From the NCBI GenBank assembly GCA_965223505.1, contig CBDCWP010000012.1, forward strand, positions 1 to 64,000: 64,000 bases of DNA. The letters run 5' to 3'. The stretch comes from Planctomycetota bacterium (GTDB taxonomy: Bacteria; Planctomycetota; PLA2; JAEUHO01). Under the pieces are notes generated by a model. That model ran no database searches and was not told the origin of the DNA. It was given only the letters and a program-made list of their open reading frames with translations. The translations under genes and the position numbers were made by a program. Below, one piece after another: positions 6,485 through 51,518 of this stretch; position 1 is the stretch's first letter; every line of letters starts with the position of its first letter.

Positions 6485-6492
6485 CGCTCTCC

Positions 6493-6520
6493 TTGACAGG
6501 CGGGGTCCGGTGGCTACCGT
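6493..6520 (+). promoter_or_regulatory. Sigma70-type promoter for the tRNA
   Basis: TTGACA-N16-TACCGT about 30 nt upstream of the tRNA. Confidence 0.6.
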
Positions 6521-6549
6521 TGCCCCGCGCTGAGCGAGCCCTACTTCAT

Positions 6550-6638
6550 GCCGGGATGGCGGAATTGGCAGACGCGCTAGACTAAGGATCTAGTGACCAG
6601 AGATGGTCTTGAGGGTTCAAGTCCCTCTCCCGGCACCA
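6550..6638 (+). tRNA. tRNA-Leu, anticodon AAG
   Basis: Acceptor stem GCCGGGA/TCCCGGC plus A-CCA; D-arm with GG; anticodon stem CTAGA/TCTAG with loop CT-AAG-GA (anticodon 6584-6586); long variable arm GACCA-GAGA-TGGTC; T-arm GAGGG-TTCAAGT-CCCTC. Confidence 0.93.
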
Positions 6639-6861
6639 CGCCTCCTCGCAGCCTGCGGCTGCGACCGGTCCCTCGCTTCGCTCGGCCCTCCAGACTTCGC
6701 CTTCGGGAGACGCGCGAACGCGCGTCCGACTTCGTGCATTCTCTTCAAGGGGGGGGAATGGTCCTCTTCCGGGCTCGAATTGGCTGCGCCAACTTGCCCT
6801 ATCCCCCTGCGGCGGCCGCCTTGGGCGCCCGCAATCGTGGAGGTGGCGTAGGGTGCTTCGC

Positions 6862-7221
6862 TCAACGGAAGCGCTGGATGAGTTTCTCGAGCATGCGGCA
6901 GACCTGTGCCGCGAGGTGGAGTGTTTGGAGGACGGCATGGGGTGATGCGAGTCGGCGGAGCTCGATGAGTTCGAGGGCGGCGGCGCATTCGGTGCATTCG
7001 GCTTGGGCGATGGTGTAGCGATGGGCTTTGTCGCGGGGACTGCGTCTCGCGGCGCCTTCGCCGATGTTGAGGAGTGTGGAGTCGGCGGCGCGTCGGAGTT
7101 GATCGGCGAGTTTGGCGCGACCGCGAGGTAGGTGGTCGGCGATGTCACCGGCTTTGATGGCGAATTCACGGGCGACGCGATAGACGTGGAGGGAGTGGAA
7201 GGCGAATGTGGGTCGATTCAT
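6862..7221 (-). CDS. Four-helix-bundle protein (23S rRNA intervening-sequence protein / Avd-like family)
   Basis: FHSLHVY...LADQLRRAADSTLLNIGEG...YTIAQAECTECAAALE pattern; 119 aa. Confidence 0.85.
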   Translation of the reverse strand: MNRPTFAFHSLHVYRVAREFAIKAGDIADHLPRGRAKLADQLRRAADSTLLNIGEGAARRSPRDKAHRYTIAQAECTECAAALELIELRRLASPHAVLQTLHLAAQVCRMLEKLIQRFR

Positions 7222-7237
7222 TGCAGGGGTGACTCCA

Positions 7238-7610
7238 GATCGTTTCCGCGTGGCGACATGCCGCGCGCGCATCTGAGGTGCGGCGTGTCGCCACGCGGAG
7301 CGATCTCCCATCCCTGATCCCTTTCCCCATCCCGATCCCTAGGCGACATGCCGCGCGCGCATCTGAGGTGCGGCGTGTCGCCACGCGGAGCGATCTCCCA
7401 TCCCTGATCCCTTTCCCCATCCCGATCCCTAGGCGACATGCGCGCGCGCATCTGAGGTGCGGCGTGTCGCCACGCGGAGCGATCTCCCATCCCTGATCCC
7501 TTTCCCTATCCCTGATCCCTTTCCCCATCCCGATCCCCATTCCTATCCCTAGGCGACATGCCGGGCGCGTATCTGAGGCGCGGCGAGTCGCCACGCGGGG
7601 CGATCTCCCT
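7238..7610. repeat. Array of four palindromic (hairpin) repeat units
   Basis: GGCGACATG starts at 7252, 7342, 7432 and 7552 (periods 90, 90, 120); each unit has the inverted repeat GGCGACATGCCGC...GCGGCGTGTCGCC. Confidence 0.92.
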
Positions 7611-37051: not shown

Positions 37052-37663
37052 ATGTCGAACTCCAAACGAAAAGGCGTGACCCGGCGTGCGTTGTTCAAAG
37101 GCGCGGGTCTCGCCGCCGCGAGCGGCGCGGTGCTCGGCCCGCTCGAAGCGTTGGCCAAGGAGGGCGACGAGGGTGTCCGCACCCAGGGGCCGGGCGCCGT
37201 CGACGTCGAGCTACGCGTCAACGGTACGGAGCAAAAGGTGTCCGTCGAACCGCGCGAGACGCTGCTGCAGGCATTGCGTCTGCCGCTGGATCTGACCGGC
37301 GCGAAGCCCGCGTGCGACCGCGCGCAGTGCGGTGCGTGCACCGTGATAATGGACGGAAAGACCGTGTACGCCTGCACCGTCCTCGCCGTCGAGGCGGAGG
37401 GGCACGAGGTGACGACCGTCGAGGGTCTGGGTACGCCGCAGAACATGGACGCCACGCAGAAGGCGTTCGTGAAGCACGACGCGCTACAGTGCGGCTTCTG
37501 CACGCCGGGCATGGTCGTCTCCTGTGCGTACGCGGTGAAGACGTACGGCAAGCAATGCACGGCCGAGCAGGTCAAGGAAGCGACGGCAGGCAACCTCTGT
37601 CGTTGCGGCACGTATCCGCATGTCCTGAGTGCCGCGCTCGAGGCGGCGAGAGGCGGTGCCTGA
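37052..37663 (+). CDS. Tat-exported 2Fe-2S subunit of a xanthine dehydrogenase-family enzyme (PaoA/YagT-like)
   Basis: TRRALFK twin-arginine signal; CDRAQCGACT, QCGFCTPG, NLCRCG. Confidence 0.92.
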   Translation: MSNSKRKGVTRRALFKGAGLAAASGAVLGPLEALAKEGDEGVRTQGPGAVDVELRVNGTEQKVSVEPRETLLQALRLPLDLTGAKPACDRAQCGACTVIMDGKTVYACTVLAVEAEGHEVTTVEGLGTPQNMDATQKAFVKHDALQCGFCTPGMVVSCAYAVKTYGKQCTAEQVKEATAGNLCRCGTYPHVLSAALEAARGGA

Positions 37664-39858
37664 TGCCGCGTGAGATCACCTACAAGGCCGGCATCGAAGG
37701 CGCTGAGCGCGAGATCACCGTGCAGGTGCACGACCTCGACTGCGACCCGTGGCCGCTCGGCGCGGAGCTGAAGCACGTCGGCACCGACGTTCCGCGCGTG
37801 GACGGCCCCGACAAGGCGACCGGCGCGGCCAAGTTCACGTACGACATCAACCGGCCCAACCTGGCGTACGCCGGGGTCGTCGCCGCGCCGCACGCGCACG
37901 CCGTCGTCCAGAAGGTCGACCTGAGCGCCGCGCAGGCGATGAAGGGCGTGCTGGCGACCCGGTCGTTCGAAGGACGTCGCGTGAAGCACGCCGGCCAGGC
38001 GGTCGCGGCGGTCTGCGCCGAGAGCGAAGGCGTGCTCAGCGACGCCTTGCGCGCGATTCGCGTCACCTACGAGGTCAAGCCGAACGCCGTCACGATCGAG
38101 CAAGCGCTGAAGGACGAGGTGCGCGTCGACGATCGCGGCGGCAGCAACGACAACGTCGGCCGTCCTGTCCGGCGCGGCAACGCCGACAAGGCCGTCGAAG
38201 AGGCGGACGTCAAGGTGCAGGCCGAGTACCGCACCGCGATCCAGACGCACTCCGCGCTCGAGCCGCACGGCAGCGTGACGGAGATCCACGCTGACGGGAC
38301 GGCGACGGTCTGGGCGAGCACCCAGTCGTGCAGCAGCTTCGGCCGCGGGCTGCAACGGCCGCTGGGGCTGCGCCGCAACGACATCCGGGTCATCACGCAG
38401 CACATGGGCGGCGGCTTCGGCGCGAAGTTCGGCCCGCGGCCCGGCGATGCGCTCGCCGCCGAGTTCGCCAAGGAGACGAAGCGGCCGGTCAAGTACCTGC
38501 TGCCGCGGCGCCTGGAGCATCTCGTCGGCGGCAACCGGCCCGACTCCATCCAGAAGATGACGCTCGCCGGCATGAAGGACGGCTCGTTCAAAGCGCTGAT
38601 GGGCGAGACCTGGGGCACCTCCGGCAACGGCAAGGGCGGCGCGGGCTGCGCGAACTTCAACGCGTACGACCTCGGCGCGGTCGTCATGGAACAGCACACG
38701 GTTTCGACGTTCACCGATCGCGGCGCCGCGTTTCGCGCGCCGCGGCACCCGCAGGGGTTCTTCGCGCTCGAGAGCTTGATCGACCTGTTCGCGGTCACGG
38801 TCGGCATGGACCCCCTGGCCGTACGTCTGAAGAACGAGACGCATCCCGTGCGCAAGATCCAGTGGAAGATCGGCGCGGAGCGCATCGGCTGGGAGACGAA
38901 CCGGCGCAAGACGCCCGACAAGGGCACGATCAAGCGCGGGGTCGGCTGCGCCGCCGGTCGCTGGGGCCAGGCGGGCCGCGGCGCGTATGTCGTCGAGCTC
39001 ACGCTCGCGTCCGACGGGAGCGTGACGGCGCGCAACGGCGTGCAGGACATCGGCACGGGGACGCGCACGGTCATCGCCATCCTGGCGGCCGAGGAGCTCG
39101 GCGTCGCGCCCTCACGCGTGAAGGTGGAGATCGGCGACACACGTTTCCCGCCCGGCCCGGGCAGCGGCGGCAGCACGACCGCGCCGTCCATCGGGCCCGC
39201 CGCGCGCGAAGCCGGCTTGCGCGGAAGAGAGGCCCTGCAGAAGCTGCTTGCGGCCGAGTGGGGGACGAAGCCCGAGGACGTCACGCAGAAGGACGGCGTG
39301 TTCGTCGCTGGAGACAAGCGGGCGACGTTCGAGCAGGCCTGCGGCCTCATCGACGGCTCGATCACGGTGCGCGGACAGCGCCGCCGCAACTACGCCGCCG
39401 CGCACGGCGAGACGGCGGGATGCCAGTTCGCCCAGGTCGCCGTCGACACCGAGACGGGCGTGATCACGGTGGAGAAGGTCGTCGCCGTGCACGACTGCGG
39501 CCGTGTGGTCGACACGTTGACGGCGCGAAGCCAGGTCAACGGCGGCGTCATCCAGGGCATCAGCTACGCGCTCTACGAGCAGCGACAGCTGGACCACAAC
39601 ATCGGCGACATGGTCAATCCCACGTTCGACACCTACAAGATCATGGGCATGCAGGACTGCCCCCAGATCGACGCCGTCATGACGTCGGTCGTGAGCGGTT
39701 TCAACAGCGTCGGCATGATGGGACTGGGCGAGCCCGCGACGGTGCCGACCGCCGGGGCGATCGCGAACGCGGTGTTCAACGCGCTCGGCGTCCAGGTTAC
39801 GGAGCTGCCGATGACGCCGGCCCGGGTGCTGGCGGCGCTGGAAAGGAGTGCGGGATGA
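37663..39858 (+). CDS. Xanthine dehydrogenase-family molybdopterin-binding subunit (PaoC-like)
   Basis: PRVDG..KATG, GGGFGAK, FRAP, QDIGTG, GSGGS, GLGEP; TGATG coupling. Confidence 0.92.
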   Translation: MPREITYKAGIEGAEREITVQVHDLDCDPWPLGAELKHVGTDVPRVDGPDKATGAAKFTYDINRPNLAYAGVVAAPHAHAVVQKVDLSAAQAMKGVLATRSFEGRRVKHAGQAVAAVCAESEGVLSDALRAIRVTYEVKPNAVTIEQALKDEVRVDDRGGSNDNVGRPVRRGNADKAVEEADVKVQAEYRTAIQTHSALEPHGSVTEIHADGTATVWASTQSCSSFGRGLQRPLGLRRNDIRVITQHMGGGFGAKFGPRPGDALAAEFAKETKRPVKYLLPRRLEHLVGGNRPDSIQKMTLAGMKDGSFKALMGETWGTSGNGKGGAGCANFNAYDLGAVVMEQHTVSTFTDRGAAFRAPRHPQGFFALESLIDLFAVTVGMDPLAVRLKNETHPVRKIQWKIGAERIGWETNRRKTPDKGTIKRGVGCAAGRWGQAGRGAYVVELTLASDGSVTARNGVQDIGTGTRTVIAILAAEELGVAPSRVKVEIGDTRFPPGPGSGGSTTAPSIGPAAREAGLRGREALQKLLAAEWGTKPEDVTQKDGVFVAGDKRATFEQACGLIDGSITVRGQRRRNYAAAHGETAGCQFAQVAVDTETGVITVEKVVAVHDCGRVVDTLTARSQVNGGVIQGISYALYEQRQLDHNIGDMVNPTFDTYKIMGMQDCPQIDAVMTSVVSGFNSVGMMGLGEPATVPTAGAIANAVFNALGVQVTELPMTPARVLAALERSAG

Positions 39859-40841
39859 AGCGCTTTCAGCTCGTCCGGCCGACGACCGTCGAGGACGCCG
39901 CGGCCGCGATGCAGGAGCCCGAAGGCAAGCGCCTGAAGGGCGGCGGCATCGACCTGCTCGACCTCATGAAGGAACGCGTCGAGGAGCCGGACACGCTCGT
40001 CGGGTTGAGCGATGTCGAGGGCTTCGACGTGATCGCCGTTCGCGACGACGGCAGCATCTCGATCGGCGCCGGCGCGACGCTGTCCGACCTCGCGGCCTCC
40101 GACGTCGTGCGGCGGTTCCTGCCGAGCCTGGCGCATGCGGCCGGGCAGGCCGCAAGCCTCCAGATCCGCAACCGTGCCACCATCGCCGGCAACGTCGCGC
40201 AGCAGACTCGCTGCGGCTACTACCGGCACGCGTCGTTCCCTTGTCTCTTGCGCGACGGCGGCAACGTGTGCCCCGTTCGGCAAGAGGGCGGCGTGCAGGA
40301 GACCGCCGGCATCTTCCACAACGAGACCTGTGCGTCCGCGCACCCGTCGAGCCTGGCGCCCGTGCTCGGCTCGCTCGACGCCACCTTCGTCACGCGCGGC
40401 GGCGAGAAGGGCGAGGCCTTCACGCTCGAGCAGCTGTTCGCCGGTCCGGACGGCAAAGCGGCCGCGTTCGCGATCCGCCCCGGATCCGTGATCGAGCGCG
40501 TCGAAATTCCACCGCGCGACGTGCCGCAGAAGCTCGGGTACGCCGAGGTGCGCCAGAAGGCCGCGTTCGACTGGGCCCTCGCCTCGTGCGCCGTGCGCGT
40601 CGTCGTCGACGGCGGCAAGATCACGGAAGCCGGCGTATGGCTCGGCTCGCTCGCGCCCGCGCCGCTACGCGCGATCTGGGTGGAGCAAGCGCTCGTGGGC
40701 AAGCCCTTCGACGACGACACGGCGGCGAAGGCGGGCGAGATCGCGCCGCAAGGCGCGACGCCGCTGCCCGGGACGCGCTACAAGGTGCAGCTTGCGCGCG
40801 TCGCGGTGAAGCGCGCGCTGTTGAATGCGATGGGGAGGTAG
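39855..40841 (+). CDS. Xanthine dehydrogenase-family FAD-binding subunit (PaoB/YagS-like)
   Basis: GGGIDLL, QIRNRATIAGN, and the 4Fe-4S insert RC.YYR...C...C...C. Confidence 0.9.
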   Translation: MKRFQLVRPTTVEDAAAAMQEPEGKRLKGGGIDLLDLMKERVEEPDTLVGLSDVEGFDVIAVRDDGSISIGAGATLSDLAASDVVRRFLPSLAHAAGQAASLQIRNRATIAGNVAQQTRCGYYRHASFPCLLRDGGNVCPVRQEGGVQETAGIFHNETCASAHPSSLAPVLGSLDATFVTRGGEKGEAFTLEQLFAGPDGKAAAFAIRPGSVIERVEIPPRDVPQKLGYAEVRQKAAFDWALASCAVRVVVDGGKITEAGVWLGSLAPAPLRAIWVEQALVGKPFDDDTAAKAGEIAPQGATPLPGTRYKVQLARVAVKRALLNAMGR

Positions 40842-41123: not shown

Positions 41124-42509
41124 TTGCAGCGTTCGCACTGGCTCTTGCTGGGTCTGCTCGCGGCGGCCGCCGTCGGGATTCCTCTTGCGCTGACGTCGGG
41201 GCTCTTCGACGAGGACCCGTTCGACGGCGGCGTGCCGGACGACCCCGAGACGTCGGCCGGCCTCATCGGTCGCGGCGCTCCGGGGCAGCTCCCGCAGGAG
41301 CTCCGGGGGCTGGGGATCCCCGACGAGCTCGACGTCGGCGACCGCAACGCCGTTCTCGAGCTGGTGTTGGAGAGCCTCGAGCAGGATCCGGTCAACTGGG
41401 CGCGCGTGGCGCAGCTGGTGGGGCAGCTCGAGCCCCCGATCGAAGATCCACTGCGCGGCCGGTTGCTGGCCGAGGTCCGCGCGGGCAACCCGTCCGTGCG
41501 GCGGGTCTTCGAGCTGGTCCGTGACCCGACGTTCGCAGACGACCTGCTCGCGATGCTCAAGGGGCGCGACTTCGAGCCGGGGGCGCGAGAGGTGTTGCTG
41601 CAAGCGCTTGCGCGCCTGCCCGGCGCCGACGCGGACGCCATCGTCTCGGCCCTCGAGGTCTTTCTCGTCGGCGACACGACCCAGGATCAGGACGTGCTGC
41701 GCGCCATCGTCAAGCGCGGCAGCCCCGCGTCGGCCCGCGCGATTCTCGCGTACACGTTGCGCAGCCTGAACCCGATGCCGTTGCGCGTGGTGCTGGGCCA
41801 AGCCGTGAAGCACGCCGACGCCGAGGGGCGCGCCGAGATTCGCGCGGCGCTGGGCCAACCGCACGAGCGGCACGTCATGGTCACGCTCATCGACTGCATC
41901 GGCGCGCTGGGCGAGGACGATCTCGTGCGGCCGTTGCTTGCCCTCGATCGCGAGGGCAGCCATCCACGCGTTCGACGCGCCGTCTACGGCGCGTTGAGCC
42001 GCATCGGGACCGACGGCGCGGTCGAGCGCCTCATCGAGGCCGGCGCCGCGCAGGACGACCGCGGCGGGGACGCGCGCCGCGCGCTGGAGCGCATGTCCGC
42101 CGCCGACGACGCGGCGCGCAAACGCATGATGGACGCCTACGAGGAGATCGACGACCCCGTTCGACGCATCGGCATCCTGCGCGCGCTGACCGAGATGGAG
42201 CACGAGCCGGTCATCCCGCTGCTCGCCGAAGCGCTCGACAGCGAGGACCCCCGGCTTCGGCGTGCCGGCGTCCACGGGCTGCGCACCTTCGGCGAGCGGG
42301 CGCGGCCGCATGTTGGCAAGATGTTCGCCCTTTGGGGGGCCGCGGACAAGGGCACGCGCGCGGCCATCGTCGGCACGCTGGCGTCGGCGGGCGGCAGCGA
42401 GGCCCGCCGCGCACTGGCGTCGCTCCAGGATGCGCCCGAGCTCACCGATCGGATTCGGTCGCTCGTCGCGCAGGCACTGCGGTCGTTCGACGATGACAGC
42501 GGCAATTAG
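41124..42509 (+). CDS. HEAT-repeat protein with an N-terminal membrane anchor
   Basis: Repeated VRRA..ALSRIG / LRRAGVHGL helical pairs. Confidence 0.75.
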   Translation: MQRSHWLLLGLLAAAAVGIPLALTSGLFDEDPFDGGVPDDPETSAGLIGRGAPGQLPQELRGLGIPDELDVGDRNAVLELVLESLEQDPVNWARVAQLVGQLEPPIEDPLRGRLLAEVRAGNPSVRRVFELVRDPTFADDLLAMLKGRDFEPGAREVLLQALARLPGADADAIVSALEVFLVGDTTQDQDVLRAIVKRGSPASARAILAYTLRSLNPMPLRVVLGQAVKHADAEGRAEIRAALGQPHERHVMVTLIDCIGALGEDDLVRPLLALDREGSHPRVRRAVYGALSRIGTDGAVERLIEAGAAQDDRGGDARRALERMSAADDAARKRMMDAYEEIDDPVRRIGILRALTEMEHEPVIPLLAEALDSEDPRLRRAGVHGLRTFGERARPHVGKMFALWGAADKGTRAAIVGTLASAGGSEARRALASLQDAPELTDRIRSLVAQALRSFDDDSGN

Positions 42510-42635
42510 TACCGCCTTGCGCAGAAATACGCGGTTTGGCTTCGCGCTTGTGTCACAGGACGCAGCGCCCTAAGGTCTGGCTCCGGCGTGGAGAGGACGG
42601 GCTCTGCGTGTGTGCCCCTTTCAAAGGAGGTGTGT

Positions 42636-44024
42636 GTGAATCGCGTACGCATAACTTGTGTCGCGGGCGCGCTGGCGCTTTGCATTCTGGTGATTCCAGC
42701 AATCACGCAAGCCAGCACCCGGACCGGGGGCGACCTCGGCAGCCGAATCGCCTTGCTCGAGCAGCAGACGGCAACGTTGAACACGTTGTTGGCCAACGTC
42801 ATGCGCTCCGGCAACGACCTGATCATCACGCAAGGGCTGGATGTGGAAGGCGCCGGCAACCTCGGCCCGAACGGACAGCACATCGCCTGCTTCGAGAACA
42901 CGAATGCGGGCGCCGCCGACGGCGTGGCGATCAAGGTCGACGGAGCGCCGCTATCGAGCGACAACAACTTCTTCACCTTCTACAACGACGACGACGTCGT
43001 CTGCGGGCGCATCGAGGGCTTCTCGCTGCTCGAGGGCGACCCGTTCTCGAACTTCCCGTCGGTTCCGAGCATCGGCATCAGCGACTTCTTCTCATTCTGT
43101 CCGAACTTCATCACGATCACCGGCGGATCCCTGCCGAGCATCAGCGGCGGCAGCCTGCCGAGCTTCGACTTCAGCATCTCGGATCCGGGCTTCAGTGGCG
43201 GATCGTGGCCGACGGTCAGCATCGGCAGCTTCCCGTCGATCGACTTCAAGTCGCCGATCCAGATCACCAACCCCCTCGACGCCGCCGGTGACGTCGTCAC
43301 CTGGCTCGCCGACGTGATCTGCTGGGCGTTCGAGAACGACCTACAGTCCCTCATCCAGACGGATCCCTTCGGGCTGGCGCTTGCGCCGCTCATTCTGACG
43401 GAGTCCACGCTCTGCAAGAACGGGACGACCGGCGAAGGCGGCGTCACGTACGGGTCGACCGGCGCCGACTACGCCGAGTGGCTCGAGAAGGCCGATCCGC
43501 GGGAGACCTTCCTTCCGGGCCAGGTCGTCGGCGTGCTCGCCGGGAAGATCAGCAAGAAGACGGACGGCGCGGACCAGATCATGGCCGTCTCGCAGATCCC
43601 CGCGGTCGTCGGCAACATCCCCCAGCCGCACGAGGCCGAGCGCTTCGAGAAGGTCGGCTTCATGGGACAGGTGGCCGTGCTGGTCCGCGGGAAGGTGACG
43701 GCCGGCGACTACATCATCCCGTCGGGACGCAACGACGGCATCGGCATCGCCCTGCCGGCAAAGGAGCTGCGCGCCAAGCATCTGACGCAGATTCTCGGGC
43801 GCGCCTGGTCCGACAGCACGTCGGAGAGTATTTCCTCCGTCACGGTCGCCATCGGCGTGAAGACGAACGCCGGCGTGGAGATCTGCGCGCGGCAGCAAGA
43901 GCGCATCGACCGGCTGCGTGAGGCCATCGAGGCTTTGCAAGCGCCGTCCCAGGCGCCCGCCGCTCCCGAGGAGAACGCCGCCCATCTCAGTGCGGGTGCT
44001 CGCAAGGAAGGGGGTGCGCGATGA
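42636..44024 (+). CDS. Secreted fibre-like protein with a C-terminal Peptidase_G2-like autoproteolytic chaperone domain, paralog 1
   Basis: AAGGAGG RBS then GTG; signal peptide; N-terminal heptads; GADYAEWLE...VGFMGQV..RGKV..GDYI..SG; C-terminal coiled coil. Confidence 0.75.
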   Translation: MNRVRITCVAGALALCILVIPAITQASTRTGGDLGSRIALLEQQTATLNTLLANVMRSGNDLIITQGLDVEGAGNLGPNGQHIACFENTNAGAADGVAIKVDGAPLSSDNNFFTFYNDDDVVCGRIEGFSLLEGDPFSNFPSVPSIGISDFFSFCPNFITITGGSLPSISGGSLPSFDFSISDPGFSGGSWPTVSIGSFPSIDFKSPIQITNPLDAAGDVVTWLADVICWAFENDLQSLIQTDPFGLALAPLILTESTLCKNGTTGEGGVTYGSTGADYAEWLEKADPRETFLPGQVVGVLAGKISKKTDGADQIMAVSQIPAVVGNIPQPHEAERFEKVGFMGQVAVLVRGKVTAGDYIIPSGRNDGIGIALPAKELRAKHLTQILGRAWSDSTSESISSVTVAIGVKTNAGVEICARQQERIDRLREAIEALQAPSQAPAAPEENAAHLSAGARKEGGAR

Positions 44025-45379
44025 AGGCCTCCAAGCTCCTGATCGCCGTCGCCTGCATCGCGCTCGTCGTGGCGGCGGTGCCCAAGAACTCGGATGCGCG
44101 CACGCGCACGGGGTCGGACCTGGGCTCTCGCGTCGCGGCGCTCGAGGCGACCATCGGCGCGCTCAACACGCTGCTCGAGAACGTCTCGCGGTCGGGCAAC
44201 GACCTGATCATCAACAGCGGTCTAACCGTCGAGGGCCCGGGCGACCTCGGTCCGACCGGTTCTCACATCGTTCGCTTCCGCAACACGGACGGCGGCGGCG
44301 AGGACGGCATCGCCGTCAAGATCAACCGTGCGCCGTGCAACTCGGGCAACAACTTCTGTACCTTCTACAACGACGACGACTACGTCTGCGGCCGCGTAGA
44401 GGGCTTCGCGCTGCTCGAGGGCGACCCCGCGACGAGCTTCCCGTCGGTGCCCAGCATCGGTCTCGACGACTTCTTCGTCTTCTGCCCGAATTTCATCAGC
44501 GTCACCGGCGGCAGGCTGCCCGGCCTGAGCGGTGGCCGGCTGCCGAGCTTCTCCTGTGACATCAGCATCGACCCGCCTTCGATCTCGTGCGACGTCGACT
44601 TCGGCGCGCTGCCGACGCTGGACCCGGGTGCGTTCCCGTCCATCGACTTCAAGGCGCCGCTCTCCATCACGAACCCGCTGGACGCCGGCGGCGACATCAT
44701 TCAGTGGCTTGCCGACGTGATTTGCTGGTGCTTCGAGAACGACCTCGAGTCGCTCATCCAGACCGATCCGTTCGGGCTGGCGCTTGCGCCGTTGATCTTG
44801 GCGGAGTCCACACTCTGCAAGAACGGCACGACCGGGGAAGGCGGCGTGACGTACGGTTCGACCGGCGCCGACTACGCCGAGTGGCTCGAGAAGCAGAACC
44901 CGTCCGACCGGTTCGTACCGGGGCAGGTCGTCGGTGTGCACCGCGGCAAGATCAGCAAGAAGACCGACGGCGCCGAGAAGGTCATGCCGATCTCGCTTGC
45001 GCCGATCGTCGTTGGCAACATGCCGCCCAAGGAGCGCGAGTCGGCTTATGCGAAGGTCGGCTTCATGGGGCAGGTGCCCGTCTACGTGCGCGGCAAGGTC
45101 CGCAAGGGCGACTACGTTGTCGCTTCGGGCAAGAACGACGGCATCGCCATCGGTGTGTCGCCCGAGGCGCTCGAGCTCGTCCACGTATCGCAGATCATCG
45201 GTCGCGCCTGGTCCGCGTCCGACGTCGACGGCGTCTCGGCCGTCAACGTCGCGATCGGGTTGAAGACCAGCGCGTGCGTCGACATCTGCAAACGACAGGA
45301 AGCCGAGATCGACGAGCTGGAGGAGGCGCTCGATGCGCTGCTTGATGCGCGCCATGGCGCGAAGGGAGGTGCGCGATGA
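44021..45379 (+). CDS. Secreted fibre-like protein with a Peptidase_G2-like domain, paralog 2
   Basis: ATGA overlap with paralog 1; same architecture. Confidence 0.75.
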   Translation: MKASKLLIAVACIALVVAAVPKNSDARTRTGSDLGSRVAALEATIGALNTLLENVSRSGNDLIINSGLTVEGPGDLGPTGSHIVRFRNTDGGGEDGIAVKINRAPCNSGNNFCTFYNDDDYVCGRVEGFALLEGDPATSFPSVPSIGLDDFFVFCPNFISVTGGRLPGLSGGRLPSFSCDISIDPPSISCDVDFGALPTLDPGAFPSIDFKAPLSITNPLDAGGDIIQWLADVICWCFENDLESLIQTDPFGLALAPLILAESTLCKNGTTGEGGVTYGSTGADYAEWLEKQNPSDRFVPGQVVGVHRGKISKKTDGAEKVMPISLAPIVVGNMPPKERESAYAKVGFMGQVPVYVRGKVRKGDYVVASGKNDGIAIGVSPEALELVHVSQIIGRAWSASDVDGVSAVNVAIGLKTSACVDICKRQEAEIDELEEALDALLDARHGAKGGAR

Positions 45380-46650
45380 AGCTCCGCGTCAAGATCGGGA
45401 TCGGCATCTTCGCGCTGGCACTTCTGGTGCTGGCCATGCCGTCGACGTCGCACGCCCGCACCCGTACCGGCACCGATCTCGGCACCCGCGTGGCGCGGCT
45501 CGAGGAACAGACGGCGCGGATCAACGCGCTGTTGGAGAACCTCTCCATCCAGGGCAACAACCTGCGCTTGGCCAGCGGCCTCAACGTCAACGGCGCCGGC
45601 GCGGTCGGGCCGAACTCGGCGCACATCGTGTGCTTCGAGAACACCGACGGCGGCAGCGAGGACGGCGTGGCGATCAAGATCGATCGCGCTCCGTGCAGCT
45701 CCGACAACAACTTCCTGACCTTCTACAACGACGACGACTACGTCTGTGGCCGCGTCGAGGGCTTCTCGCTGCTCGACGGCGATCCGGCGTCGACGTTCCC
45801 GTCGTTGCCGAGCATTGGTCTGGACGACTTCTTTTCGTTCTGCCCGAACTTCATCTCGATCACCGGGGGCCAGCTCCCGAGCTTCGATCCGGGGAGCTTC
45901 CCCTCGTCGCTGCCGAGCCTCGATCCAGGAGCATTCCCGTCGATCGACTTCAAGTCGCCGCTCACGATCACGAACCCCTTGGATGCGGGCGGGGACATCG
46001 TGAGCTGGCTTGCGGACGTGATCTGCTGGGCGTTCGAGAACGACTTCCAGTCGGTTATTCAGGGCGACCCGTTCGGGATCGCGCTCGCCGCTCTGATCCT
46101 CGTCGAGGCGACGCTCTGTAAGAACGGCCCGTTCGGCGGCGTCACCTACGGATCGACGGGCGCCGACTACGCCGAGTGGTTGGAGAAGCTCCATCCGTCC
46201 GAGCGGTTCCTGCCCGGGCAGATCGTCGGCGTGCACGGCGGCAAGATCAGCAAGAAGACCGAAGGCGCGGAGCAGGTCATGGCGATCTCGCTGGCGCCCG
46301 CGGTCATCGGGAACGTTCCGGCGAAGCAGGACGAGGCGCTCTACGAGCGCGTGGGCTTCATGGGGCAGGTCCCGGTGTACGTCCAAGGCAAGGTCAAGGC
46401 GGGTGACTACATCATTCCGTCCGGCCGCGGCGACGGCATCGGTGTCGCGGTCTCGCCCGATGAGCTCGACCTGAAGGACGTGGCGCACATCCTGGGCCGT
46501 GCGTGGTCCGAGAGCAGCAGCGACGGCGTCGCCTCGGTCAACGTCGGCATCGGGCTCGACACGAACGAGCTGACCGGCGTGTTCGAGAAGAACGCCGATC
46601 GACTGGATCGACTCGAGGAGAAGCTCCAGCTTCTTCGCGAGCGGAAGTAA
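45376..46650 (+). CDS. Secreted fibre-like protein with a Peptidase_G2-like domain, paralog 3
   Basis: ATGA overlap with paralog 2; same architecture. Confidence 0.75.
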   Translation: MKLRVKIGIGIFALALLVLAMPSTSHARTRTGTDLGTRVARLEEQTARINALLENLSIQGNNLRLASGLNVNGAGAVGPNSAHIVCFENTDGGSEDGVAIKIDRAPCSSDNNFLTFYNDDDYVCGRVEGFSLLDGDPASTFPSLPSIGLDDFFSFCPNFISITGGQLPSFDPGSFPSSLPSLDPGAFPSIDFKSPLTITNPLDAGGDIVSWLADVICWAFENDFQSVIQGDPFGIALAALILVEATLCKNGPFGGVTYGSTGADYAEWLEKLHPSERFLPGQIVGVHGGKISKKTEGAEQVMAISLAPAVIGNVPAKQDEALYERVGFMGQVPVYVQGKVKAGDYIIPSGRGDGIGVAVSPDELDLKDVAHILGRAWSESSSDGVASVNVGIGLDTNELTGVFEKNADRLDRLEEKLQLLRERK

Positions 46651-46694
46651 ACGTGGGGGCGGCGTGGGCCGCTCGCACGAGCTGAAGGCCGATT

Positions 46695-46724
46695 GCGGCT
46701 CGCCGACCAACGGCGGGCCGCTTT
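46695..46724 (+). terminator. Possible weak terminator or stabilising hairpin
   Basis: GCGGCTCGCCG-ACCAA-CGGCGGGCCGC followed by TTT. Confidence 0.45.
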
Positions 46725-46766
46725 CGTGTCCAAACAGTGCGAGCGTGCTACGGGAGCGAGACAAGC

Positions 46767-48932
46767 ATGGACGTCGAGTCGTCTGAGACCTCGAAGGAGC
46801 AAGCGCCGTCCACCGACGCGCTGTTCACTCCGATCGATGCCGCGAGCCTCGGTTTCTTCCGCTTCGGCTTCGGCGTCATCATGCTCGTGGAGATGCTCCA
46901 CTACATCCTCGACGGATTGGTGCAGAGCCTGTACGTCGACGCGACGTTTCACTTCAAGTTCTACGGGTTCGGCTGGGTCGAGGCGCTGCCCGAGGCCGGG
47001 ATGTTCGCCCTGTTCTGGTCGCTGGTGGTTCTGGCGCTTCTGATCGCGGTCGGCCTCTTCTACCGCGTATCGATCTTCCTGTTCGGCCTCGGATTCACAT
47101 ACGTCTTCCTCTTGGACAAGACGTACTACCTCAACCACTTCTATCTCATCAGCCTGCTCTGCCTGATCCTCGTGTTCGTCCCCGCCGACCGGGCGTTTTC
47201 GCTCCGGCGGCTGCGCAAGCCCGATACGCCGCGCACGCTGCCGGTCTGGTGCCTCTGGTTGCTGCGATTCCAGCTCGGGCTGGTGTACTTCCTCGCGGGT
47301 GCCGCGAAGCTCAACGCCGACTGGTTGCGTGGCGAGCCGATGCGCTCGATGGCGTACGCCGGCGAGTCGATCCTCTCGCCGGGCTTTCCCGCTTGGGCGC
47401 AGAACGACGTCGTCGTGTACATCGGCGCGTACGGCGGACTGCTGTTCGACCTGTTCGTCACGCCGTTCCTCCTGTGGCGCAAGACACGGATGATCGCCTT
47501 CTTGTTCGCTTGTGCGTTCCACTTGGGCAACTTCTTCGTCTTCCGCCTGCCGATCGGCATCTTCCCCTGGTACATGATCGTGGCGACGACGCTGTTCTTC
47601 GACCCGGACTGGCCACGCCAGGTAATCGGGTGGTGGCGCCGCCGGCGAGGCCTGACGGGGCCGGAACCCGTCGTCACCGATCCGACGCCCGTCGTCCCCT
47701 CGCCGCTTCGACGCAAGCTCATCCTCGGTCTCGGCGGTCTTTACATCGTCGTTCAGATCCTGCTCCCGCTGCGGCACAACCTGTATCCCGGCAATCCCTC
47801 CTGGACCAACGAGGGCAACGACTTCGCATGGCGCATGATGATCTTCGCGAAGGACCCCGAGGCGCGCTTCTATGCGACCGACCCCGACACAGGAAAGGTC
47901 TGGCAGATCGACGCCGAGGAGTACCTGACGCCGTATCAGGCACTGATCATGCCGCTGCGACCGGACATGATCCTGCAGTTCTGCCACCACGCGGCGAACG
48001 ATCTACGGGCCAAGGGACATGAACGCGTCGAGATTCGCGGCTACGTGAAGGCGACATTGAACGGCCGGCGGCCGCAGCTGCTCATCAACCCCTTCGTCGA
48101 TCTTGCGGCGGAGCCGCGATCGCTTGCGCACAAGCCGTGGATTCAGCCGTTGACCGTTCCGTTCGAGGAACGGCAGTTCGTGAGCCCCGATCCGAAGATG
48201 CGTTCGGGGTGGGCCGCATTCGAGCCCGGTGCCTGGATCCTGGCAGACGAGCGTCTGTCGCTGGCCGGCAAGACCGCCAGCTTCCGGCGCTTGCGCACCC
48301 TCCAGCTTCGTGACCAAAAGCGCTACATCCGTACCGAGAACATCTCGAAGATCCCGCTCGACGCCGGCGGCGACATCGTTCTTCCTGTCACGCCGGGTGC
48401 GTTGCCGGAGGATCTCGACATGCGCGTCCAGACCGTGGACCACGAGACGCTCGAGATCGACGGCGTCAAGGTCGCGTGCAAGGTGACCGCGTACACGATG
48501 TCGAACAGCGACGACCCCTGGCAGGCGCGATTGGTCCTGTGGACGACGGACACGTTTCGGGTCCCCTATCGCGAGGTGCCGGACGTTCAGCCGAGGCTGT
48601 TGAGGCGCATGGCCATGATGCCGAACGTCGTGAAGTTGAAGTACGTCGTGATGGACCAGATGAGCCGCCGCGAGGGCATCTACGAGGTTCAGGTCGAGGC
48701 GTTGCAGGAGTCGTTTTCGCTCGGCGAACGCACGCTCGAATGCGTACGCGAGTCGGCACGCATCGCGCGACGCGGCCAGGGCGGCGAGGTCCTGGCGAAG
48801 ATGGAGCGCTGGCTGTCGACCGAGGTTCCCAACCACATCGTCAAGGCGACCGTGAACACGGCGCAGCCCAAGCGCACCACCGAGTGGGGCTTCTCGATCG
48901 TGAAGTTCAGCGGCCGCGCACAGAACCCCTGA
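46767..48932 (+). CDS. HTTM-domain protein, vitamin K-dependent gamma-glutamyl carboxylase homologue with an extra C-terminal domain
   Basis: DAASLGFFRFGFG, YLNHFYL, AKLNADWLRG, IGIFP, FAWRMM, PDMILQF.H, LNGR..Q..I.P.VDL, PWIQPL. Confidence 0.85.
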   Translation: MDVESSETSKEQAPSTDALFTPIDAASLGFFRFGFGVIMLVEMLHYILDGLVQSLYVDATFHFKFYGFGWVEALPEAGMFALFWSLVVLALLIAVGLFYRVSIFLFGLGFTYVFLLDKTYYLNHFYLISLLCLILVFVPADRAFSLRRLRKPDTPRTLPVWCLWLLRFQLGLVYFLAGAAKLNADWLRGEPMRSMAYAGESILSPGFPAWAQNDVVVYIGAYGGLLFDLFVTPFLLWRKTRMIAFLFACAFHLGNFFVFRLPIGIFPWYMIVATTLFFDPDWPRQVIGWWRRRRGLTGPEPVVTDPTPVVPSPLRRKLILGLGGLYIVVQILLPLRHNLYPGNPSWTNEGNDFAWRMMIFAKDPEARFYATDPDTGKVWQIDAEEYLTPYQALIMPLRPDMILQFCHHAANDLRAKGHERVEIRGYVKATLNGRRPQLLINPFVDLAAEPRSLAHKPWIQPLTVPFEERQFVSPDPKMRSGWAAFEPGAWILADERLSLAGKTASFRRLRTLQLRDQKRYIRTENISKIPLDAGGDIVLPVTPGALPEDLDMRVQTVDHETLEIDGVKVACKVTAYTMSNSDDPWQARLVLWTTDTFRVPYREVPDVQPRLLRRMAMMPNVVKLKYVVMDQMSRREGIYEVQVEALQESFSLGERTLECVRESARIARRGQGGEVLAKMERWLSTEVPNHIVKATVNTAQPKRTTEWGFSIVKFSGRAQNP

Positions 48933-48957
48933 TCCGATCGTGTACGGTACGCCCGTC

Positions 48958-49914
48958 ATGAAGCGTGCCACCGTCCTCATCCTCGGTCTGCTCACCGCGT
49001 GCGGCGAGGAGCCCGCTCCCAAGCCGTTGCCGGACGACCCCTATGTGCTCGTGCTCGGCACCGCGCAGGACGGCGGCTTCCCCCAGATCGGCGCGGACCA
49101 CGCACTCGCGCGCGCCGCGCGCAGAGACACGACGCTTCGACGGTTCGTCGCATCGCTGCTGATCGTCGATCCGCGCAGCGGCAAGCGTTGGTTGATCGAC
49201 GCGACGCCGGACCTGCGCGAACAGGTCGAGCTGGCGCGCGGTCATCCGCCGAACCGCAAGCTGCCCGGCCCCCGGCCGCCCTTGTTCGAGGGCATCTTCC
49301 TCACGCACGCGCACATGGGGCACTACACGGGCTTGATCCACCTGGGCCGCGAGGCGTACGGGGCGAAGGACATGCCGGTGATCGCGTCCGACGAGATGGC
49401 GACCTTCCTCGAGAACAACGGTCCCTGGAGCCTTCTGGTCGAGCTGAAGAACATCCAGCTGCGCACGCTTCGCGCCGGCGAGGCGGTGCCGCTGGCCGAC
49501 GACCTGAGCGTGTTGGCGATCGAGGTGCCGCATCGTTCGGAGTACACGGGCACGTTCGGGTTCGTGATCAAGGGACCGTCGAAGTCGTTGCTCTACATTC
49601 CGGACATCGACAAGTGGGAGAAGTGGACGCGCGAGATCGAGGACGAGATCGCCGCCGTCGACTACGCGCTACTGGACGGGACGTTCTTCGAGAACGGAGA
49701 GATCCCCGGGCGCGACATGTCGTTGATTCCGCATCCGTTCATCGAAGAGTCGTTGCGGCGGTTCGCGCCGCTGCCGGCGACGGAGCGGTCGAAGGTGTTC
49801 TTCACGCACCTGAACCACACGAACCCCGCGTCGGATCCGAACGGCGCTGCGCAGCGCAAGGTGAAGGCCGCGGGGTGCGCCGTGGCGGCCGACGGGCAGG
49901 TGTTCGGGCTGTGA
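48958..49914 (+). CDS. PqqB-like metallo-beta-lactamase-fold hydrolase (lipoprotein)
   Basis: VLGTAQDGGFPQ, DATPD, THAHMGH, LDGTFF, HLNHTNP; lipobox LTAC. Confidence 0.85.
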   Translation: MKRATVLILGLLTACGEEPAPKPLPDDPYVLVLGTAQDGGFPQIGADHALARAARRDTTLRRFVASLLIVDPRSGKRWLIDATPDLREQVELARGHPPNRKLPGPRPPLFEGIFLTHAHMGHYTGLIHLGREAYGAKDMPVIASDEMATFLENNGPWSLLVELKNIQLRTLRAGEAVPLADDLSVLAIEVPHRSEYTGTFGFVIKGPSKSLLYIPDIDKWEKWTREIEDEIAAVDYALLDGTFFENGEIPGRDMSLIPHPFIEESLRRFAPLPATERSKVFFTHLNHTNPASDPNGAAQRKVKAAGCAVAADGQVFGL

Positions 49915-49932
49915 CGCCGGCGGGTCCGGGGC

Positions 49933-50445
49933 CTATCGCGCCATGCCGGCCAGCGCCGAAGGCAGATCGTGATGCCGGCGCCACGACGCCAGCTGCCCCA
50001 GGTGCATGTTCGCGTGGGCCACCAGCAGGAAGACGAGGTAGTCCGCCATCGTCGGCAGCGCGCCGTCGAAGCGCCATTCGACCGGCGCCTCGAGCGCCTC
50101 CGCCGACAAACCGCGAATCGCCTCGGCCAGGCGCGCCTGCTGGCGCTCCATCTCCTTCAGCAGCGCGGCTGCCGTCGGGTACTTGGCGGGGTCCGGATCG
50201 GGCACGCGTGGATCGCCGGGACCGTTGCGCTCGAAGAGGTCGCGCCAGCCGTCGGGCAGGTCGCGTTCGAGGCCCAGCTCGGCGGCGACGAACCCGAGGC
50301 CCGTGACGATGTGGCCGAGCGTCCAGGCCGGGTGGTTCTCCAACCCCTTCGGGCCGGGCCGGCCCCACAGGGTGTCGGGAACGTCCGCGACCAGCGCGCG
50401 CGCGTACGCGAGGTTCCAGTCCATCTGGTGCAGCACGTGTTCCAT
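49933..50445 (-). CDS. DinB/YfiT family protein
   Basis: NHPAWTLGH...HANMHLGQL; coupled to the desaturase stop codon. Confidence 0.85.
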   Translation of the reverse strand: MEHVLHQMDWNLAYARALVADVPDTLWGRPGPKGLENHPAWTLGHIVTGLGFVAAELGLERDLPDGWRDLFERNGPGDPRVPDPDPAKYPTAAALLKEMERQQARLAEAIRGLSAEALEAPVEWRFDGALPTMADYLVFLLVAHANMHLGQLASWRRHHDLPSALAGMAR

Positions 50446-51518
50446 CACGCGGGCTTCGTGGCCGCCGCCCGATCCGACTGTCGCAGCCTCGGCAGCGGCA
50501 CCATCCGCTCCTGCTCTTCGTCCCAGAGCGCGAGACGCGCGAAGGGGATGGTCTCCCACAGGGTGTATCCGCGCACGCCCAGCCGGTCGTTCACCTTCCT
50601 GTTGGCGTCACCCAGCCGGTAGCAGGGGATCTTGGCATCGAGGTGATGCACGTGGTGGTAGCCGATGCCGAGCCACAACCACTCGCCGAGCGGACGGCTG
50701 AGGCGCAGGTACGAGCTGCCGTGCACCGCGCCTTCGAAGTAGCTCCAGCCTTCGTCACGCGACGTCTTCCAGACGGCGTCTTCGAAGTGGTGCTGCACGA
50801 AGAAGAGCCAGCCGGCGATGGACGCGGCGAAGATGCAGATGGGGAGCTGTACCTGGGCGAGCGGGCCGATGCCGCCGACGGCGAATCCGGCTGCGACGTG
50901 CATCAAGACGATGACGACGGTGGTCAGATGCACGTCGAGGGTCGACTCGCTCGGCACCTTGCGCCACGCGGCCGGGAGCCGGTGCCCGATGGAAAAGTGG
51001 ACGAACGGCAGCAGCCCGACCATGACGGGCGGCGAGCGGAAGATGCGGTACGCGATGCGCTTCGGCCTCGACCAGCTCTCGAACTCCTTGACGGTGTGGA
51101 GCTTGAGGTAGCCCTCGTCGCTGCGTTCGATGTCGCCGACGGCGGTGTGGTGGGCGATGTGGCTCTTGCGCCAGCGGTCGTAGGGCGTGAAGAGGATCAG
51201 GCCGAAGACGATGCCCCACCAGCGGTTGGCGCGCGGCGTTCGGAAGAGCGCGTGGTGCACGGTGTCGTGGAAGAGCACGAAGATGCGCGACATGATCAGG
51301 CCGCAGGCGAGACCGGTGGCGGCGGCGGCGGGAATGCTGACGGGGATCAGCTTGAAGGTCGCGATCCAGAGCGCGACGTAGAGCGCGACGCTGACGGAGG
51401 CTTCGATCCAGCTGCGGGCCGTGTCGAGCGTGCGGAACCGGCGCAGGTCCTCGAGGACCCCACGAAGCTCGGCCTTGCTCGCCGGCACGGCTGGTTCCTG
51501 TTGCGCTACGGCCTCCAT
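50445..51518 (-). CDS. Membrane fatty acid desaturase
   Basis: His boxes HDTVH, HIAHH, VQHH, HHVHH. Confidence 0.9.
   Translation of the reverse strand: MEAVAQQEPAVPASKAELRGVLEDLRRFRTLDTARSWIEASVSVALYVALWIATFKLIPVSIPAAAATGLACGLIMSRIFVLFHDTVHHALFRTPRANRWWGIVFGLILFTPYDRWRKSHIAHHTAVGDIERSDEGYLKLHTVKEFESWSRPKRIAYRIFRSPPVMVGLLPFVHFSIGHRLPAAWRKVPSESTLDVHLTTVVIVLMHVAAGFAVGGIGPLAQVQLPICIFAASIAGWLFFVQHHFEDAVWKTSRDEGWSYFEGAVHGSSYLRLSRPLGEWLWLGIGYHHVHHLDAKIPCYRLGDANRKVNDRLGVRGYTLWETIPFARLALWDEEQERMVPLPRLRQSDRAAATKPA

Follow-up and report, generated by a model that had tools for sequence, protein, structure and literature searches.

Three tandem genes of a Planctomycetota bacterium encode paralogous proteins with signal-like N-termini and a phi29 gp12-type chaperone domain

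Three overlapping genes and the layout of their products

The stretch of DNA analyzed here (64,000 nucleotides (nt) of contig CBDCWP010000012.1 from a Planctomycetota bacterium; hereafter the window) carries three adjacent genes, called A, B and C below, which an earlier note had described as coupled secreted paralogs with a phage-type self-cleaving chaperone domain, proposing that they form a heterotrimeric, possibly membrane-active fibre. The observation of the trio as a whole was confirmed in full and, of its interpretation, the chaperone class and the cellular, exported nature of the proteins stood, but neither the heterotrimer nor the membrane activity was borne out by the analyses presented below. 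The genes and the elements recognized in them are the following (aa, amino acids; ORF, open reading frame; pLDDT, predicted local distance difference test; HMM, hidden Markov model):

42636-44024, + strand: gene A, 462 aa (upstream in-frame limit at 42588 in the ORF list); signal, STRTGGDLG N-module, beta-rich segment, GxLPS repeats, helical neck, DYAE, chaperone domain and coiled-coil tail
42636-42713, + strand: signal peptide of A (by inspection)
43467-43478, + strand: DYAE of A (by alignment), with the predicted cut before 43467
44021-45379, + strand: gene B, 452 aa (ORF list), with an ATGA overlap with the stop of A
44021-44098, + strand: signal peptide of B (by inspection)
44870-44881, + strand: DYAE of B (by alignment), with the predicted cut before 44870
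45376-46650, + strand: gene C, 424 aa (ORF list), with an ATGA overlap with the stop of B
45376-45456, + strand: signal peptide of C (by inspection)
46165-46560, + strand: chaperone domain of C (residues 264-395; AlphaFold2 (AF2) pLDDT above 90, fold of 3gqh_A, HMM alignments), with the predicted cut before D264
46567-46647, + strand: C-terminal helix of C after the chaperone domain (coiled-coil candidate; model helix 398-423, kept in relatives)

The layout of B and C is that of A. As had been claimed, the N-termini of all three look like cleavable Sec signal peptides on inspection, with a basic n-region, a hydrophobic h-region and an AxA-like end, and the cut sites predicted in the same way lie between TQA and STRTG in A, SDA and RTRTG in B, and SHA and RTRTG in C. 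The motifs TRTGxDLGxR, NNFxTFYNDDDxVCGRxEG, DPFGxALAxLIL and GGVTYGSTGADYAEWLEK, all pointed out in the earlier note, are invariant across the three proteins, and so are four cysteines, which fits an exported protein. Pairwise identity is 62-65% overall, far above chance, and by segment it amounts to 78-83% in the helical neck, 89-100% in the cleavage-site linker, 55-64% in the chaperone core and 30-56% in the tail; the repeat segments differ by gaps of 6, 13 and 19 residues and the tails by 8-24 residues in length. An AF2 model of C, built on an alignment of 117 sequences, reached a mean pLDDT of 79.6 (above 90 over residues 262-395 and 57-66 in the repeat segment), and its helices 34-54 and 398-423 correspond to the two coiled-coil candidates.

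The likely start codon of gene A is the GTG at 42636, which is preceded 5-12 nt upstream by AAAGGAGG. ATGA overlaps join the genes at both internal junctions, each reading ...GGTGCGCGATGA, and the resemblance of the two junctions, where A and B both end in GGAR, is real. It is, however, not a protein motif: these ends are coded by AAGGGAGGTGCGCGATGA in A and AAGGGGGTGCGCGATGA in B, which are the Shine-Dalgarno site plus spacer of the following gene, so that the GGAR codons overlap the GGAGG/GGGGG-containing ribosome-binding site (RBS) of that gene. The junctions are thus alike because the RBS of the next gene is translated, as a relic of a duplicated unit. A comparable ribosome-binding sequence, AAAGGAGGTGTGTGTG, stands ahead of gene A, where the AGGAGGTG..TG arrangement of both internal junctions is also seen; therefore, the duplicated repeat unit is "RBS + gene", and the trio would have arisen by tandem triplication of this unit in this lineage.

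A C-terminal domain of the Peptidase_G2 type

The assignment of the domain that begins with DYAE to the Peptidase_G2 type was verified with profiles and with a structural model. The Pfam family PF11962 (Peptidase_G2) matched A, B and C with 30.3, 25.3 and 30.5 bits (cut-off 25) and the isolated C-terminal domain (C-domain) with 34.0 bits, and it matched 47 of 48 aligned C-domains. These 48 sequences (3 from the window and 45 of the 87 from the related loci described below) were also turned into a profile that was run against the sequences of the PDB, where the best match was 28nb_A, the chaperone domain D4 of the tailspike Dpo31 (E = 8.3e-6), followed by 28lx_A, also from Dpo31 (2.5e-4), 3gqh_A, the C-terminal fragment of phi29 gp12 (3.8e-4), and 6qz9_A, the full-length gp12 (1.5e-3). 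With Dpo31, a phage protein unlike the trio, ADYAEYFEN falls on ADYAEWLEK and a second conserved block, (V/I)G(L/F)xGQ..V.V, aligns as well; with gp12, DYAEWLE aligns with DFAEYFE, the first residues of the 3gqh chain, from gp12 residue 692 onward.

The fold gave the same answer. The top PDB match of Foldseek for the model of C was 3gqh_A (E = 8.5e-5), and VIA-align superposed residues 264..393 of the model on residues 692..854 of that chain (Z 12.6, root-mean-square deviation 2.5 A, 114 aligned residues), which places D264 on gp12 D692; 3suc followed with Z 12.5, and the next, unrelated rows were phage capsid decoration proteins with Z values of at most 9.6. The residues D, Y, A and E, of which the Asp and the Glu are catalytic in the cleavage motif of gp12, are invariant in all 117 aligned family members. 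They lie on gp12 DFAE 692-695, at the start of the released domain, and in one structural study the models of mature gp12 in the virion stop at residue 691 (PMC6542822). Since profile, fold and the alignment of DYAE all point to gp12, we consider the homology of the C-domain with the gp12 autochaperone to be solid. Self-cleavage is predicted, from the alignment, between the Ala and the Asp of GSTGA-DYAE. Among the PHROGs, phrog_34132 (unknown function) was matched, together with weak matches to pre-neck appendage protein.

The closest known system is thus phi29 gp12 itself (MEROPS G2/PF11962), with which the trio shares the fold, a score above the Pfam cut-off, the attachment of the domain to the C-terminal end of a fibrous protein and the very D-[YF]-A-E motif with which the released fragment begins. 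Unlike gp12, the three proteins belong to a cell that exports them by the Sec route, and there is no virion for them to join; their mature part has no match to the gp12 beta-helix, they carry an extra coiled-coil tail after the chaperone, and identity is only ~22%. Peptidase_S74 chaperones, as in endosialidase or the T5 fibre, likewise sit at the C-terminus, trimerize and cut themselves off, but they belong to a different family with different catalytic residues, and no Peptidase_S74 match was found in Pfam scans of the trio or of the 48 C-domains. Co-option of an S74-type self-cleaving chaperone by a cellular protein is described for MYRF in two articles (PMC3742443, PMC8326128).

A widespread cellular family and the question of the oligomer

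A profile of the trio was searched against 1.84 billion representative proteins, which yielded 2858 clusters (50% identity) at E<=1e-3, 2059 at <=1e-10 and 1449 at <=1e-30. The conserved cassette (profile positions ~66-438) forms the C-terminal end of longer proteins of 600-1400 aa in most of the 150 matches listed, and it comprises the beta-rich segment (NNFxTF..GRIEGF), GxLPS-type repeats of varying number, the helical neck, the DYAE chaperone and the coiled-coil tail. On genome contigs (one genome per species), a first scan with the trio alone and narrow patterns gave 163 pattern matches, none of which was confirmed; with a wider alignment, 541 of 587 candidate stretches were confirmed to encode a relative. 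Eighty of these 541 loci were read in detail with up to 10 kb of DNA on each side, and they hold 87 family genes. They come from Bacteroidota, Planctomycetota, Lentisphaerota, Verrucomicrobiota, Gemmatimonadota, Ignavibacteriota, Chlorobiota and Nitrospirota, and also from Shewanella; carriers named among the genome matches include Portibacter, Altibacter, Hymenobacter and Shewanella canadensis.

By comparison, 2.9 million viral contigs returned four weak matches, confined to 56-106 residues of the C-domain, and no full cassette, so that the trio is cellular and exported and not phage-borne, in line with what had been proposed. Downstream ORFs of at least 130 aa, present for 78 of the 87 family genes, are mostly housekeeping genes (a Mrp/ParA-type ATPase in 12 of 78, also topoisomerase, photolyase and others). 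The N-terminal parts of 70 relatives (69 of the 117-member alignment plus P0210) mostly lack a Pfam family, two having collagen triple-helix repeats, two LVIVD propellers and one a bactofilin-like stretch. No literature on this widespread family was found, and the earlier note's "undescribed system" holds in that sense only.

Copy number varies among the 80 loci: 75 have one family gene, three loci (L046, L063 and L076) have two, L078 has three and L010 four, so that the number three, which the earlier note had wondered might be constant, is not kept in relatives. A quick IQ-TREE of 49 C-domains, with supports from the Shimodaira-Hasegawa-like approximate likelihood-ratio test (SH-aLRT) only, united A, B and C in one clade (95) with tip branches of 0.48-0.6, while separate clades were formed by the L078 triplet (99) and by the L063 pair (99). 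Tandem expansion thus happened several times independently, without settling on three copies, and the trio itself arose by triplication within its own lineage. The L078 triplet (L078:20-7343, Chitinophagales) consists of genes that are 81-84% identical with spacers of 66-70 nt, and the differences between them concentrate in a hydrophobic, hypervariable stretch of ~50 residues right before the chaperone domain.

The N-terminal module of the trio was found to have a distribution of its own. A search of the same genome with the trio gave five further places that match positions 4-79 only, and four of these encode small secreted proteins of 157-253 aa. Their N-termini read ...QA, the predicted cut and RTRTG(T/S)DLG(S/A)RVAALE, and differing C-terminal domains follow:

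L004, G000:C41 ~126.4 kb: N-module followed by YadA-head-like SGGxxNxASG repeats (by eye)
L005, C21 ~432.1 kb: N-module protein
L006, C30 ~195.4 kb: N-module protein
L007, C10 ~155.1 kb: N-module protein

All four share the order signal, RTRTGxDLGxRVAALE and short coiled coil; L005 to L007 end in small beta domains, two of which are preceded by an H-x-H..DxRYVRDSG motif. The genes are scattered, with no common neighbour by eye; none of 40 relatives of the window's genome showed the module, and a search for homologues of L007 returned only L007 itself. Phage fibre sets are constructed in this way, with one N-terminal adaptor shared by differing distal domains and, by this analogy, L004 to L007 look like members, with the trio, of a fibre set with a common adaptor. 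The shared RTRTGxDLGxRVAxLE module would then probably dock the trio and at least four other small secreted proteins to a common partner. YadA-type trimeric autotransporter adhesins offer another comparison: they are also short exported trimeric fibres of coiled-coil and beta structure, and the repeats of L004 resemble their heads, but the trio lacks a C-terminal beta-barrel anchor and its trimerization would use a removable chaperone.

The explanation that we favour, and hold to be more probable than its competitors, is that A, B and C are paralogous Sec-exported short trimeric fibres with a phi29-gp12-type chaperone ending, most likely three separate homotrimers. The trimeric fibre character is suggested by analogy, from the chaperone class, the N- and C-terminal helices and the collagen repeats of two of the 70 relatives. 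In such a scheme, the signal peptide would be cut off after the A-x-A end and the three C-terminal chaperone domains would associate and nucleate folding, which would run from C to N through the helical neck and the GxLPS-repeat stalk to the beta-rich domain and, last, the N-terminal coiled coil; the chaperone would then cut itself off at GSTGA-DYAE through the invariant Asp and Glu, leaving mature chains of ~236-257 residues. It is the homology alone that is established here, and the course of these steps is what we infer from it. Homotrimers of A, B and C would differ in stalk length and tail.

Several observations weigh against this explanation. The PF11962 match spans only profile positions ~37-101 of 228, and the remainder of the C-domain is backed by the fold of the model and not by the HMM. 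Self-cleavage of gp12 needs adenosine triphosphate (ATP), a dependence that is implausible outside the cytoplasm, where ATP is wanting, so that the exported A, B and C may be cleaved by another mechanism or not at all. The mature part of C (residues 55-263), modelled alone, reached a pLDDT of 68.8 and had no match with Z>=5 among 48,161 chains (best 4.6), this being a monomer model of a probable intertwined trimer; since no fold is recognizable in it, the word "fibre" rests on analogy. In none of the three proteins was an outer-membrane targeting signal identified, and the fibres may end up in the periplasm or on the cell surface. Finally, three observations would be expected of an obligate 1:1:1 ABC heterotrimer as well: the ATGA overlaps at both junctions, the retention of all catalytic and structural motifs in three intact copies after an old duplication (as judged from their identity and tip branches), and the existence of a second, independent tandem triplet in L078.

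In that heterotrimer, which the earlier note had favoured, the C-domains would pick one chain each and translational coupling would provide equal amounts. We consider it unlikely, because a single copy is the family default and two or four copies are also seen, because the triplication is specific to this lineage and because the duplicated RBS + gene unit accounts for the overlaps by itself. In addition, if the repeat segment is an in-register threefold stalk, chains that differ by 6-19 residues there and by 8-24 in the tail would fit it poorly, and separate homotrimers would, by analogy, fit better. We also counted against it that the solved relatives found (3gqh, 3suc, 28nb and 28lx) are chains of homo-oligomeric tailspikes. 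Mixed trimers of A, B and C may nevertheless be compatible with the copy-number and length data.

A different idea concerns the hydrophobic helix before the cleavage site, which would insert into a membrane once the chaperone is gone and make the fibre membrane-anchored or membrane-active. The model of C does have helices at 206-221 and 232-249, right before that site, C reaches a Kyte-Doolittle value of 1.62 over 19 residues, and one subfamily, to which the L078 triplet belongs, has ~50 hydrophobic hypervariable residues there. When the 19-residue Kyte-Doolittle window was applied to the 110 residues upstream of DYAE, however, only 18 of 117 members reached 1.6, with A at 1.25 and B at 1.19. 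In most members, the hydropathy is too low for a membrane segment and agrees with a neck helix that is buried, and the segment is short and flanked by charges, so that a helical neck buried in the trimer would fit equally well. We therefore regard a membrane-active fibre as very unlikely.

Neighbouring genes, a VKGC-like enzyme and the origin of the block

The genes around the trio are as follows:

41124-42509, + strand: HEAT-repeat protein upstream of the trio (context only)
46695-46721, + strand: G+C-rich hairpin of 11 pairs with a weak T tail between C and the next gene; possible attenuator, weak (5 such sites in the region vs 4.4 in shuffles)
46767-48932, + strand: membrane protein with HTTM and VKGC lumenal domains, 721 aa from its ATG, starting 117 nt after gene C, with a 250-aa C-terminal extension; candidate fibre partner
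48940-49914, + strand: metallo-beta-lactamase (MBL)-fold protein (Lactamase_B_2), directly after the HTTM gene
49933-50559, - strand: DinB_2 protein (Pfam)
50445-51518, - strand: fatty-acid desaturase (Pfam)

Further upstream, 37312-40841 encodes a molybdopterin-binding large subunit of the xanthine dehydrogenase type and then a probable flavin adenine dinucleotide (FAD)-binding subunit (no Pfam match at E<=0.001), and these genes are ordinary metabolism upstream of the block. As the earlier note had stated, there are no phage genes nearby, the neighbours being the molybdopterin oxidoreductase and the HEAT, HTTM, MBL-fold, DinB and desaturase genes.

The G+C content is 64-67% over 42001-50000 vs 69-72% in the flanks, and 40 relatives of the window's genome (from its family, order and phylum) yielded no member of the fibre family; together, these observations indicate that the 42-50 kb block was probably acquired horizontally. 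The same two observations could be cited for a remnant of a prophage tail-fibre module, as could the facts that the only solved relatives of the C-domain are phage tailspikes and that the PHROGs gave weak matches to pre-neck appendage protein. That the trio is such a remnant is nonetheless extremely improbable, considering its signal peptides, the absence of phage genes beside it, the hundreds of chromosomal copies with housekeeping neighbours and the lack of the full cassette in viral contigs.

The gene that follows the trio was absent from the earlier note. Its product matched the Pfam families HTTM (3.3e-78) and VKGC lumenal domain (5.9e-40) and, over residues 19-465, human GGCX (1.2e-42), with no NCBIfam match for it or for A, B and C. 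Counting residues along the GGCX alignment, the equivalents of human K218, H160, D263 and N290 are K181, H124, D228 and N255, and four bacterial homologues all share the first three of these; the part that corresponds to human ~374-418 in the alignment is also retained. The importance of the catalytic residues and of the ~374-418 region, which is essential for carboxylation, is described in PMC13486548. This neighbour therefore resembles the vitamin K-dependent carboxylase family in its HTTM and lumenal domains and in its K218/H160 equivalents, but it differs by the 250-aa extension without known family and by the lack of a recognizable Gla-type substrate. The extension (residues 470-721) has no Pfam family, and its best ESM Atlas score was 0.83, below the useful range.

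The closest relative found, in L034 (Planctomycetota), is 52% identical over residues 18-715, extension included, and it is translationally coupled to a fibre-family gene of 647 aa, whose stop its ATG overlaps. The motifs GWAxFExGxW, DDPWxARL, RVPYRExPD and RWLSxEVPNHIVKA of the extension are kept in that homologue. In a sample of 400 Planctomycetota genomes, the extension was joined to HTTM only in the genome of L034, weak matches elsewhere being other proteins; other Planctomycetota have it as a secreted protein by itself (L094, 244 aa) or repeated in tandem within a 1082-aa ORF (L119). L034 also has a HEAT protein gene (5783-7441) downstream of its HTTM gene, and this protein shows no significant similarity to the HEAT protein of the window (E 0.19). 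L010 (Saprospiraceae) has four fibre genes, and the first is followed by a short HTTM gene (32% identical). In the tree, the fibres linked to HTTM belong to a single clade of 17 rows (support 85). Since the window and L034 are both from Planctomycetota, the fibre-HTTM pairing may be one inherited arrangement.

These data raise the possibility of a fibre and carboxylase unit, compatible with the explanation preferred above, in which the HTTM enzyme would modify the exported chains in the periplasm, for example by carboxylation of Glu or Asp, or would mature them. The conserved domains with their catalytic Lys and His, the match to human GGCX and the linkage to fibre genes in L034 and in L010, within one clade, all favour it, as does the fact that this is the sole HTTM gene of the genome, which has a VKOR gene elsewhere. 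According to the reports on MloH, this known bacterial homologue is a true carboxylase, with a small molecule as its substrate (PMC12647623; bioRxiv 10.64898/2026.08.19.745780). Against such a unit, an HTTM gene lies next door in only 2 of the 80 related loci, and a search of 32 of the fibre-bearing genomes of the 80 loci found an HTTM gene of any kind in only 10, which shows that the family as a whole does not need HTTM. Moreover, A, B and C have no Gla domain (PF00594) match at E<=1, the hairpin lies between gene C and the HTTM gene, none of 11 metagenome loci with short HTTM relatives has a fibre gene, and in two relatives the short HTTM sits by imelysin-like and cytochrome c peroxidase genes. 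A complex prediction for the HTTM protein and residues 150-424 of C scored 0.00, which is no answer and evidence neither way. Altogether, we judge the unit to be rather unlikely.

The two relatives just mentioned (L091, G001:C74, and L092, G010:C324) have their short HTTM genes, 44% and 37% identical, directly after an imelysin-like lipoprotein gene (by eye) and also by a gene for a di-haem cytochrome c peroxidase-like protein, a different recurrent context of HTTM. The adjacency of HTTM and desaturase genes in the window may be due to chance; giant viruses that pair VKGC-like epoxidases with desaturases are described in PMC13486548.

A stronger form of the idea, that the fibres would be the first protein substrates or the obligate clients of a bacterial VKGC homologue, with the periplasmic extension found only in the two fibre-coupled copies, seems to us quite unlikely. 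If it were true, the HTTM enzyme would carboxylate or mature the exported chains before a phage-type chaperone folds and releases them, giving for instance Ca2+-binding fibres. The recurring link to a carboxylase-like enzyme is, in any case, a concrete place to seek a protein substrate of bacterial VKGC homologues.

The trio is a minimal, triplicated member of a very large uncharacterized cellular family. A phi29-type self-cleaving chaperone, known from phage tailspikes, closes a cassette in thousands of Sec-exported bacterial proteins, and this cassette is a candidate general route to cellular trimeric fibres without a membrane anchor domain, of which the version in the window, with mature chains of ~240 residues, is small enough to suit biochemistry.

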